DNA of 64,000 bases, taken from the NCBI RefSeq assembly GCF_003018255.1, contig NZ_CP027440.1. One strand, written 5' to 3'. This document shows positions 5,598 through 56,294 of the stretch, piece by piece (position 1 is the stretch's first letter; every line of letters starts with the position of its first letter). The DNA is from Escherichia coli. Its GTDB lineage: Bacteria; Pseudomonadota; Gammaproteobacteria; Enterobacterales; Enterobacteriaceae. A program made the translations under genes and the position numbers. The notes below the pieces were generated by a model that saw nothing but the letters and a program-made list of their open reading frames with translations, ran no database searches and was not told the DNA's origin.

Positions 5598-5864
5598 TCA
5601 AGCCACTTCTCTGGCGTCCACCTGGTATCTGCTGGGCCAGATTACAGCAGGTTCAACCCCTATTTTTTCGGCGATGGCGGCTTCGTATTTACGGCACTGG
5701 CGGTAAAACACATTGCGCATTGATCCGCTTTTTAATCCTAACTCCCTTTCCAGTTCAGGGAGGTCTGTGCCTTTGTTTTCAAGGGCTGCATATACCGCTT
5801 TAGCAGACCAGTCACACCCCTCTCGAACAAACAAATTATTCGATGCTTGTCTGGATACCCTCAT
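5598..5864 (-). CDS. Ner-like DNA-binding regulator
   Basis: 88 aa; C-terminal VIWPSRYQ and overall alignment to Mu Ner as recalled; AGAGGA RBS; first gene of the early operon. Confidence 0.8.
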   Translation of the reverse strand: MRVSRQASNNLFVREGCDWSAKAVYAALENKGTDLPELERELGLKSGSMRNVFYRQCRKYEAAIAEKIGVEPAVIWPSRYQVDAREVA

Positions 5865-6020
5865 TGTGTGATCCTCTCATGTTTACCTGAACCGATAATC
5901 AAAACCGGTTATCGATTTAGGTAAATCATAATCGCAAAATAATTCGATATCAACGGTTTTTTGCGAGCATATCGAAATTAAATGCGATGTCGATAATTTC
6001 TTTGTTTTATAGGGGGTTAT
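5865..6020. promoter_or_regulatory. divergent immunity/early control region (operators and promoters between ner and repressor)
   Basis: 156 bp AT-rich intergenic region between divergent genes with at least five copies of a CGATA/TATCG half-site (e.g. CGATAA at 5893 and 5991, TTATCG at 5909) in direct and inverted orientation. Confidence 0.55.
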
Positions 6021-6632
6021 ATGGATAAGGCAGAAAAAACCGTATCCAGTGCGGAACGGTTTATTGATATGGAAGGAATAAACCGATTTTCAGAACGCTT
6101 AGCTATGGCTATGGGAAACATGACAAACGTCGAACTGGCGACCCTTTGTGGACTATCTGAAGCCACAGTAAGAAATTACAGGAAGGGGAAAAACTTCCCT
6201 CCTTTGGATAAACTGGCCTTAATAGCTAAAGCCTGTAATTGTTCACTCGAATGGTTGGCCACAGGCAAGAACGAAGATGAATGCGGAAAAATCGAAAACA
6301 ATTGCGATTCAGGTTCGGGTATTGATCAGGCGCTTAGCTCTCTAAGCCCCCAAGAGAAGCAATTAATCCTTACATTCATCAGGCGAGAAGGTACTAATAA
6401 CCTTGTCAGGCTGGCAGCAATGAATACATCTACAATCAGCCAGGATGCGGTAGAAAGCATCATTGATGCCTTGCCATTACGTCCCGTACTAAAAAATGCA
6501 ATAAAGATAGGAATGGCGGGAAGTGAAGAAACAGACAAAGAGATTTTGCGCGTTATTGAGAAGTACAACTCGAGCAATAACGCCACCCAGGAATCAGGGG
6601 CAGTGACAGTAAAGAAAAATGTTGTTGGTTAA
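6021..6632 (+). CDS. prophage repressor, cI/XRE-type helix-turn-helix
   Basis: 203 aa; N-terminal HTH (ELATLCGLSEATVRNYRKGKNFPPLDKLALIAKACNCSLEWL); transcribed divergently from ner toward the prophage end as in Mu c; AGGGGG RBS. Not similar to Mu c itself. Confidence 0.7.
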   Translation: MDKAEKTVSSAERFIDMEGINRFSERLAMAMGNMTNVELATLCGLSEATVRNYRKGKNFPPLDKLALIAKACNCSLEWLATGKNEDECGKIENNCDSGSGIDQALSSLSPQEKQLILTFIRREGTNNLVRLAAMNTSTISQDAVESIIDALPLRPVLKNAIKIGMAGSEETDKEILRVIEKYNSSNNATQESGAVTVKKNVVG

Positions 6633-54380: not shown

Positions 54381-54408
54381 TTGCAGAGGGAAAGATTTCT
54401 CGTATAAT
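54381..54408 (+). promoter_or_regulatory. glyVXY tRNA operon promoter
   Basis: TTGCAG (-35), 16 bp spacer, TATAAT (-10), upstream A/T-rich UP-like tract and GC-rich discriminator GCGCCTCCCG typical of stringently controlled stable-RNA promoters. Confidence 0.65.
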
Positions 54409-54465: not shown

Positions 54466-54541
<76 letters not shown>

Positions 54542-54698
54542 AAATTTGAAAAGTGCTGCAAAGCACAGACCACCCAATCGCAGTATTTCGAATTGCGACA
54601 AGGCGGCAACTGAACGAATCCTTGGGAACTTACAAAAGTAAGTGACTAAGGTGAGTGAAGGCAGCCAAGGCAGTAGCGGTTCGAAAGACGAAGATTAA

Positions 54699-54774
<76 letters not shown>

Positions 54775-54809
54775 AAATTTGAAAGTGCTGTAAAGCACAG
54801 ACCACCCAA

Positions 54810-54885
<76 letters not shown>

Positions 54886-54899
54886 AATTCTTCTCTCAA

Positions 54900-55160
54900 T
54901 AAAATATCCACAGCGACGCGATGCGTTATTGCTGGTTTTTGTTGTCTCTGACAAACTCTTGTAAACAGAGTTATCCACAGCCTCAGGCCGTAATCTTAAT
55001 TTCAAAGAAACTTCGCACGGTGAATAGTATTTTTTTAACCTATTGATAGATAAGTTAAAAATTAAGATTTCGTTTTGTCGAGTCGATCACTTGACGATTT
55101 TATTCGTCTTGAATTGCAATGCGTTTTTATTTTTATTCACAAGCTGTGGATGAATCAGGC
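54900..55160. promoter_or_regulatory. datA: DnaA-box cluster, probable datA (DnaA titration) locus
   Basis: Three DnaA-box-like 9-mers: ATATCCACA (54904-54912), perfect TTATCCACA (54971-54979), and TGTGGATGA (55145-55153, reverse complement TCATCCACA). datA maps downstream of glyVXY in K-12 (recalled); extent here is approximate. Confidence 0.5.
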
Positions 55161-56292
55161 GTCACGCGGTAACCCTTTTTCAATCACCCGAACCAGACGC
55201 TGTTTTTTGGGTAATTGCACTTCGACCACGCACGCATTTCGCCTCTCGATTTGCTGCGCAATCGCCCACGCTATGTGCTCATCAAGAAGTGGGTGCTCAC
55301 CTTTACGACTTTCCAGCGCTGTCAAAATCGTTTCATCCCAGGGGGCATTGCCTAATGCTACGGCGATATTACGCAGCCAACGCAGGTGACCTATACGGCG
55401 AATCGCCGAACCTTCCGTGACTTTTAAAAACTTCTCTTCACTCCAGGCGAATAACTCAATGAGTTCCGGTGCGTGTAGCGGCTTACGCGGGCTGAAATCG
55501 TCTTCTGTAGTGAGTTGCGAATAGCGATTCCACGGGCAGATAAGCTGGCAGTCATCGCAACCGTAAATACGGTTTCCCATTAACGGTCGCAACTCTTCCG
55601 GGATCGCCCCTTCCAGTTCGATGGTGAGATAAGAGATACAGCGGCGAGCATCGACGGTATATGGCTCGACGATGGCACCGGTCGGGCAAATCGTCATACA
55701 GGCCACGCATTTACCGCATCCTTCCTCGACTGGTTGATCCACGGGCAGCGGAATATCGACCAGCAATTCGCCTAAAAAGAAGAACGAACCGGCCTCGCGA
55801 TTGAGGATAAGTGAGTGCTTACCTGTCCAGCCAAGACCTGCTTTTTCAGCTAACGGGCGCTCGAGAATAGGCGCAGAATCGACAAACGGTCTAAAATTCA
55901 GCGAAACACAATGTTGCTGAATCATCTCGCCCAGCTTTTTGAGTCGGTTGCGCAGAAGCTTGTGATAGTCACGGCCCAGCGCATAACGGCTAACATAGCC
56001 GAGTTTGGGATTTTTCAGCGTGCTGGCAAATGCGGCGTTAGCAGGAAGGTAATTCATCCGAACGCTGATCACGCGCAGCGTACCGGGCAATAATTCGTGA
56101 GGACGAGCACGCAGCATACCGTGACGCGCCATCCAGTCCATTTCGCCGTGGTATTGTTTGTCCAGCCATGCTTGCAGTTTGGGCTCGGACGCGCTGAGAT
56201 CGGTATCGGTAATACCTACCTGCTGAAAGCCCAGTTCCAGCCCCCACTGTTTAATATTTTGCGCTAATTGATTGAGATCGAGGGGCTCTGAC

Positions 56293-56294
<2 letters not shown>
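55155..56294 (-). CDS. queG: epoxyqueuosine reductase QueG
   Basis: ORF 55155..56402; start at MSEPLDLNQLAQ gives 379 aa; 4Fe-4S ferredoxin-type cysteine motifs (CGKCVACMTICP, CDDCQLICP). Confidence 0.9.

Follow-up and report, generated by a model that had tools for sequence, protein, structure and literature searches.

What is the cluster of DnaA boxes between glyY and queG in this Escherichia coli chromosome, and how much of its layout is kept beyond the species? A sequence-only reading of the window (the 64,000-nt stretch of DNA that we analysed, to which all coordinates refer unless MG1655 is named) had noted that datA maps to this intergenic region in K-12. datA, the DnaA-inactivating locus, is a site at which DnaA and the DNA-bending protein IHF assemble and by which DnaA is turned off following every replication round. 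It belongs to the small set of non-coding elements of the E. coli chromosome that govern when replication initiates; it escapes gene-centred annotation, and a reader with only the sequence at hand is able to recover such elements. We are close to certain that positions 54900–55160 are datA, carried by a non-K-12 strain in what is essentially the K-12 form, and we found no sequence feature that contradicts this identification. For E. coli the result is textbook-level knowledge without novelty, and the sequence-only reading had indeed expected a known, K-12-like element here.

Layout of the locus and its K-12 counterpart

Four DnaA boxes with at most one mismatch to TTATCCACA lie within 54904–55153, in the glyY–queG intergenic region. 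The cluster reported by the sequence-only reading therefore stands, with a count (three consensus or near-consensus boxes) that was slightly low; its single perfect box is TTATCCACA at 54971–54979 (+), which is box 2, a high-affinity and essential site. The published primers subDnaAbox2_L/R (PMC10950094) replace exactly TTATCCACA after GACAAACTCTTGTAAACAGAG, at the place that corresponds to box 2 of the window. Box 3, likewise described as high-affinity and essential, is probably the 9-mer TTATTCACA at 55133–55141 (+), which has at most one mismatch, fits TTATNCACA and is assigned by its position and orientation. In reviews, boxes 2 and 3 are high-affinity sites of the same orientation on either side of the IHF-binding site (IBS), and box 4 is a stimulatory, non-essential box within the minimal region (PMC5742627, PMC10380432). 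From its position, the inverted 9-mer TCATCCACA at 55145–55153 (−), 3 bp after box 3, is the probable box 4. At the upstream end, ATATCCACA at 54904–54912 (+; one mismatch) lies in the 5′ arm of a hairpin, at the published overlap of terminator and box 1, and we therefore take it to be box 1; published K-12 work found this box dispensable in vitro for DDAH, the reaction at datA by which ATP bound to DnaA is hydrolysed.

Box 7 is the least obvious of the sites. The probable 9-mer is TTGTAAACA at 54959–54967 (+), 3 bp upstream of box 2 and with two misfits to TTWTNCACA, a placement that draws on the reviews, on orientation, on spacing arithmetic and on conservation. Box 7 is known as a low-affinity site that adjoins box 2 and whose mutation abolishes DDAH (PMC5835720), and a putative yjeV promoter partly overlaps it (PMC10950094). 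With this placement, boxes 7, 2 and 3 share one orientation, and the first base of box 7 and the last base of box 3 delimit 183 bp, the length given for minimal datA (PMC5742627, PMC10380432). A position between the IBS and box 3 was considered and rejected: that interval holds no plus-strand site with three or fewer mismatches, and the literature puts box 7 beside box 2. Immediately before box 3 lies a T-rich tract, TTTTTATTT at 55124–55132 (+), which is strongly conserved across genera and for which we found no published assignment. Farther out, TTATCCTCA at 55802–55810 (−), inside queG, is a candidate for box 5 of the original 1-kb fragment.

The sequence-only reading had suggested a look for an IHF site between the boxes, and one is present between boxes 2 and 3, at 55036–55048 (TAACCTATTGATA on the plus strand, TATCAATAGGTTA on the minus strand); 56 bp separate it from box 2 and 84 bp from box 3. 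It is one of six matches to WATCARNNNNTTR in the 64-kb window and the sole match within 2 kb, and it is the single IBS between these boxes that fits TAAnnnnTTGATW. The IBS published for MG1655, TATCAATAGGTTA (PMC4585315, Supplementary Figure S11), is the reverse complement of the window sequence, and the primer ChdatAsubIBS (PMC10950094) alters TTGATA inside TAACCTATTGATA. Between the IHF site and box 3, at 55075–55107 (+), there is also a terminator-like hairpin with a T-run (TTGTCGAGTCGATCACTTGACGA TTTTATTCGT), which contains the only GATC of the locus (55085).

Alignment with MG1655 settles the correspondence. Window 54800–55200 and MG1655 4392573–4392973 are identical at 399 of 401 positions (99.5%) and align free of gaps, so that MG1655 coordinates are window coordinates plus 4,337,773. 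Both substitutions lie in spacers (54989, C for T; 55070, T for C), and boxes 1, 7, 2, 3 and 4 and the IBS are identical in the two sequences; because there are no indels, all published spacings are preserved. In MG1655, boxes 1–4 span about 4392677–4392926 (94.7 min), with box 7 at 4392732–4392740, box 2 at 4392744–4392752, the IBS at 4392809–4392821, box 3 at 4392906–4392914 and box 4 at 4392918–4392926. The gene order orn–glyV–glyX–glyY–(yjeV)–queG–nnr is common to the window and K-12. Published work locates datA downstream of glyV-X-Y and before queG (PMC10950094), and in the window the tRNA-Gly genes reach to 54885 and queG has its stop at 55155. The mutagenesis primers for box 2 and for the IHF site from the same study match window 54971–54979 and 55036–55048. 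The K-12 position named by the sequence-only reading is thus borne out by the alignment, the gene order, the literature and the primers, and the reference has datA in the glyY–queG region rather than elsewhere.

The K-12 locus resembles that of the window in sequence, boxes, IBS, neighbours and terminator overlap, and differs from it in the two spacer bases and in a glyV–glyX spacer that is free of a 120-bp palindromic insert. oriC lies outside the window; datA is expected about 0.47 Mb from it, close enough to be duplicated early, and its position is reported to be conserved across 59 genomes (PMC4585315). The sequence-only reading was also correct, for RefSeq, that gene-centred annotation misses the element: neither MG1655 nor the other records examined carry a datA feature, and in these records the features annotated under the datA match are queG and a hypothetical protein (yjeV) only.

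Within E. coli the locus is almost universal. A 275-bp core (54886–55160) is present as a single copy in 5,425 of 5,426 complete genomes, one genome giving no datA match, and identity falls below 95% in just three. An alignment of the most divergent of the sampled E. coli copies also took in E. albertii and an incomplete copy from E. whittamii, which stops soon after the IBS. Every aligned Escherichia copy has boxes 1, 7 and 2 and the consensus positions of the IBS intact; of boxes 3 and 4, all covered copies are intact except those of E. coli P276M, and the substitutions in the aligned copies fall in spacers. The boxes are therefore conserved among E. coli genomes, the point on which the sequence-only reading had said that its identification could fail, and a published comparison of 59 genomes agrees on the conservation of the boxes and the IBS (PMC4585315). 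In P276M (NZ_CP044293.1, L123:2720-2770), about 40 bp around box 3 are replaced, so that box 3 reads TTATTTTGG and box 4 is weakened to TCATCCAAA; this strain should lack DDAH if the variant is not an assembly error.

Comparison across Enterobacterales

To look beyond Escherichia, we scanned one genome per species for TTATCCACA, a gap of 44–68 bp, TAANNNNTTGAT, a gap of 72–96 bp and TTATNCACA, a pattern for which the estimated chance expectation is well under one match; the scan returned at least 120 loci. The box 2–IHF–box 3 module occurs together with an opposite-strand queG homologue in at least 73 species representatives from at least 21 genera, and these queG-linked loci cover at least five families (Enterobacteriaceae, Erwiniaceae, Yersiniaceae, Hafniaceae and Morganellaceae). 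Among the matches listed, 71 of the 73 queG-linked loci have a queG homologue that begins 17–53 bp beyond box 3, and the two spacings are held to 55–58 and 83–87 bp (counting the IBS as 12 nt), though each could have varied over 25 bp in the scan. Upstream of box 2, a stretch of 12 bp, TtnTaaACA followed by GAg, is nearly as invariant as box 2 itself in the matches listed (at least 21 genera). This footprint retains positions 1, 4 and 7–9 of a DnaA box, and box 7 was not required by the search; the conserved TtnTaaACA+GAg therefore provides independent support for the placement of box 7. The order of the core in the matches listed is box 7, 3 bp, box 2, about 56 bp, the IBS, about 84 bp, the T-tract and box 3.

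The remaining parts follow family lines. A box 1-like site with at most one mismatch lies within 130 bp upstream of box 2 in 20 of 22 Enterobacteriaceae, 10 of 11 Erwiniaceae and 27 of 28 Morganellaceae among the matches listed, and in none of the nine Yersiniaceae and one of the two Hafniaceae. In the matches listed, their offset from box 2 is −65 to −68 bp, or −59 bp for the one site in Hafniaceae. The offset of about −67 bp is kept in three families, among them the Morganellaceae, in which the matches listed have no tRNA terminator nearby. Box 4, counted with up to two mismatches, is present among the matches listed in 22/22 Enterobacteriaceae and 11/11 Erwiniaceae (all with at most one mismatch), in 2/9 Yersiniaceae and in neither Morganellaceae (0/28) nor Hafniaceae (0/2), which leaves Enterobacteriaceae and Erwiniaceae as the two families that conserve it.

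Linkage to the tRNA genes varies as well. In the matches listed, a tRNA-Gly(GCC) gene lies within 400 bp upstream in all 18 Enterobacteriaceae, 6 of 8 Erwiniaceae, all 8 Yersiniaceae and both Hafniaceae, and in none of 26 Morganellaceae. Morganella and Providencia have tRNA genes about 470 bp upstream of the module; in Photorhabdus and Xenorhabdus these genes are 1.2–2.5 kb or more away, with genes inserted between, or were not found in the locus. The insertions between the tRNA-Gly array and datA include a small antitoxin-like ORF in Photorhabdus (L033, L100, L112) and a 480-aa ORF in Xenorhabdus (L017), and they put distance between datA and the tRNA promoter by which it is timed in E. coli. 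In Tatumella (L016:10852-11026, L061), the module lies directly upstream of nnr, and we found no queG homologue in the locus. The ancestral order appears to have been orn, tRNA-Gly array, datA, queG, and the module appears to be retained when either neighbour is displaced.

Forty-seven of the listed matches are without queG. Five of these are datA loci of Enterobacterales (L008, L016, L029, L061 and L071), with a truncated flank or without queG, and the other 42 come from outside the order.

The published datA comparisons that we found in the literature searched are within E. coli only. We tentatively propose, as a possibility short of an even chance, that datA combines a fixed core at the 3′ end of queG in at least five families with accessory parts that are lineage-specific, and that the comparison adds detail that is unpublished. 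The points that may be new are the fixed core, the family-specific boxes 1 and 4, the T-tract and the loosened tRNA linkage in Morganellaceae. If this comparative reading is true, Morganellaceae would need another source of read-through or another timing mechanism, and the variation among families in box 1, box 4 and the tRNA-Gly link offers natural test cases for the read-through model of datA timing.

ATP hydrolysis, titration and read-through transcription

In the mechanism published for K-12, ATP-DnaA binds the co-oriented boxes 7, 2 and 3 head-to-tail, and IHF, at its single site between boxes 2 and 3, bends the DNA sharply. The bend joins the complexes on box 2 and box 3 into one head-to-tail DnaA oligomer, in which arginine-finger contacts lead to hydrolysis of the ATP that DnaA carries. 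In the published work, box 4 and negative supercoiling stimulate DDAH, dissociation of ADP-DnaA allows datA to turn over, and direct binding of DnaA (titration) has the smaller effect. DDAH depends on the arginine finger R285, R281, L290 and sensor-2 R334 (PMC5742627, PMC10380432). Because no functional base of the window differs from K-12, we infer the same mechanism for its datA; binding of ATP-DnaA and IHF, IHF-dependent hydrolysis and over-initiation on deletion are expectations carried over from the near-identical K-12 sequence. The contribution of DDAH in vivo is modest. Cells survive the deletion of datA, and their ATP-DnaA rises by just a few percent (PMC5835720); a strain that has none of the extrinsic DnaA regulators is reported to grow almost normally (PMC11331064).

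The sequence-only reading had called datA a DnaA-titration locus. Titration is real, but the main accepted activity is IHF-dependent hydrolysis of DnaA-bound ATP, with titration secondary (PMC5835720). The original model went further and treated datA as a passive DnaA sink that does not catalyse hydrolysis. It accounts for the discovery of datA as an exceptionally strong DnaA-binding fragment, and it can call on the finding that point mutants of box 2 or the IBS merely reduce titration by datA plasmids, titration being accepted in part (PMC5835720). However, the point mutations in the IBS, box 2 and box 7 that abolish DDAH phenocopy deletion of datA (PMC5835720), and a sink needs neither IHF, nor strict spacing, nor co-orientation of boxes 7, 2 and 3. 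The near-invariant spacing across five families also speaks against a sink and, judged from sequence comparison, points to a defined three-dimensional complex. As a sole mechanism, the sink has been largely refuted by reconstitution of DDAH in vitro (PMC5835720 and reviews), and we consider it very improbable.

Transcription enters through the upstream operon. glyV (54466–54541), glyX (54699–54774) and glyY (54810–54885), all on the plus strand and identified by ARAGORN, Rfam and the K-12 annotation, are three identical tRNA-Gly(GCC) genes. These three tRNAs were the only hits of the Rfam search; a YrlA candidate over glyX–glyY (40 bits against a gathering score of 69) was rejected as a tRNA-like artefact. 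The array varies in copy number, and many E. coli genomes (for example, ST131 strains) have two genes rather than three. The glyV–glyX spacer is 157 bp long in the window versus 36 bp in K-12, and the extra 120 bp (54579–54698) form an imperfect palindrome with a DNA fold z of −3.0; 1,608 of 5,426 E. coli genomes have it at the same place. The palindrome contains a near match to the ERIC2 primer sequence and is presumably a repeat of the ERIC/IRU type. It falls within the transcription unit that is proposed to control datA by read-through.

The probable glyV-X-Y promoter is at 54381–54408 (+), with a −35 of TTGCAG, a 16-bp spacer and a −10 of TATAAT. An A/T tract stands before it and a GC-rich discriminator after it; these exact coordinates are our reading of the bases, and a consensus promoter scan made no call, at this promoter or elsewhere. 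Read-through transcripts that cross datA originate at PglyV-X-Y (PMC10950094). After glyY, an imperfect hairpin with a T-run at 54936–54940 marks the terminator or attenuator of the operon (54897–54944, +). The terminator scan missed it, and RNA folding shows the hairpin (−14.3 kcal/mol, z −2.06). In published work, box 1 and the −35 of the putative yjeV promoter both share bases with the terminator (PMC10950094). On the far side of the IHF site, yjeV (55119–55172, +), a 17-codon ORF annotated in K-12 and identical in sequence here, has an overlap with boxes 3 and 4 as well as with the end of queG, and is probably incidental to datA. queG (epoxyqueuosine reductase; 55155–56294, −, from the K-12 alignment) abuts datA with its 3′ end.

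According to the published timing model, glyV-X-Y transcription before initiation would pass the leaky terminator, cross the IHF site and keep IHF off; after initiation, IHF would bind, block read-through and switch DDAH on, and box 1, the terminator and box 2 would together reduce basal read-through. In the published experiments, three things limit read-through transcription: IHF, DnaA bound to box 2, and the leaky terminator together with box 1 (PMC10950094). The boxes could then be chiefly transcriptional, acting as a DnaA roadblock or attenuator for tRNA-Gly read-through or in the regulation of yjeV or queG, with replication secondary. Such a role would fit the overlap of box 1 with the glyV-X-Y terminator, the increase in read-through when box 2 is mutated or the terminator and box 1 are deleted (PMC10950094), and a tRNA-Gly operon directly upstream in four of five families (among the matches listed). 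Yet the published model has transcription regulating datA and not the reverse, deletion of the terminator barely shifts the timing of initiation, and box 2 and IBS mutants lose DDAH (PMC10950094). The limited role of the queG promoter in that study points against queG regulation. Comparison leads to the same answer: among the matches listed, Morganellaceae keep the module intact beside queG with tRNA genes from 0.47 to at least 2.5 kb away or absent from the locus, and Tatumella keeps it without queG. A module that is kept without an adjacent tRNA operon or without queG is not tied to the expression of either neighbour, and a chiefly transcriptional role is less probable still than a sink, to the point of being hard to entertain.

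Other DnaA-box loci and chance clusters

The least probable reading of all, to which we give practically no weight, is that the boxes are a chance cluster in AT-rich intergenic DNA or a DnaA site of another kind, such as an origin or a DARS-type element, as the deep conservation and the evidence for datA identity refute both. The intergenic region is AT-rich (35% G+C versus 50% for the window), which alone is insufficient to explain the cluster. The window also has an excess of one-mismatch DnaA-box words, 34 against a mean of 13.25 in dinucleotide-preserving shuffles (2.6-fold; no shuffle reached 34). Nevertheless, the locus is the densest cluster of the 64-kb window, with four boxes in 260 bp, a density reached by none of 300 first-order Markov simulations (three boxes were reached in 1.3%), and random placement of the 34 hits of the window gives a P of about 0.01 for a cluster of four.

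A similar architecture is found in the DnaA-oligomerisation region of oriC (R1–IBS–R5M and the boxes after it), in which co-oriented boxes also flank one IHF site, and IHF-bent DNA carries head-to-tail ATP-DnaA oligomers that need the arginine finger (PMC5742627, PMC10380432). datA differs in the longer gap between the boxes around the IBS, in that HU cannot replace IHF (PMC5742627, PMC10380432), and in outcome, which is ATP hydrolysis at datA and unwinding at oriC. We found no match to the oriC 13-mer GATCTNTTNTTTT with up to two mismatches in 54886–55160, and the lone GATC contrasts with the GATC cluster of oriC. Together, these two results exclude an origin-like element here.

DARS1 and DARS2 are, like datA, non-coding clusters of DnaA boxes outside oriC that alter the nucleotide state of DnaA, and DARS2 shares with datA the use of timed IHF binding but needs Fis as well. 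DARS cores have oppositely oriented boxes I–III, of which boxes I and II form the essential unit; they work on ADP-DnaA and free its ADP, a reaction opposite to that of datA. The inverted pair of boxes 3 and 4 is superficially like a DARS core; however, this pair is dispensable and three families lack it (among the matches listed), whereas the essential boxes of the locus share one orientation on either side of an IHF site, an architecture that is that of datA and not of DARS. The clusters of Bacillus subtilis and Streptomyces coelicolor resemble datA as chromosomal DnaA boxes that repress untimely initiation. Unlike for datA, neither a use of IHF nor catalysis of ATP hydrolysis is known for them, and they are without sequence or synteny relationship to it.

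Synteny led us to reject the 42 listed matches from outside Enterobacterales as datA homologues; they are other DnaA-box clusters. The Bacilli matches to the box–IHF–box pattern are the rnpA–dnaA origin region (among the matches listed). In Sutterella, Parasutterella and a Burkholderiaceae MAG, the box–IHF consensus–box pattern has a fixed 59/87-bp spacing and three perfect DnaA boxes. These betaproteobacterial loci (L007, L011, L024, L026, L040, L066, L068, L074 and L079) could be an origin or a datA-like element; at L068, the pattern lies in the hemE–priA intergenic region. Several other clades among the matches listed also show fixed spacings of their own.

Elsewhere in the window, three near-consensus DnaA boxes lie on the minus strand within 224 bp (5988–6211), probably by chance. 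We dropped this cluster as it sits in rare accessory DNA: the surrounding segment (5700–6500) includes two helix-turn-helix genes and occurs in only 35 of 5,426 E. coli genomes, so that collinearity with K-12 does not extend to the start of the window.
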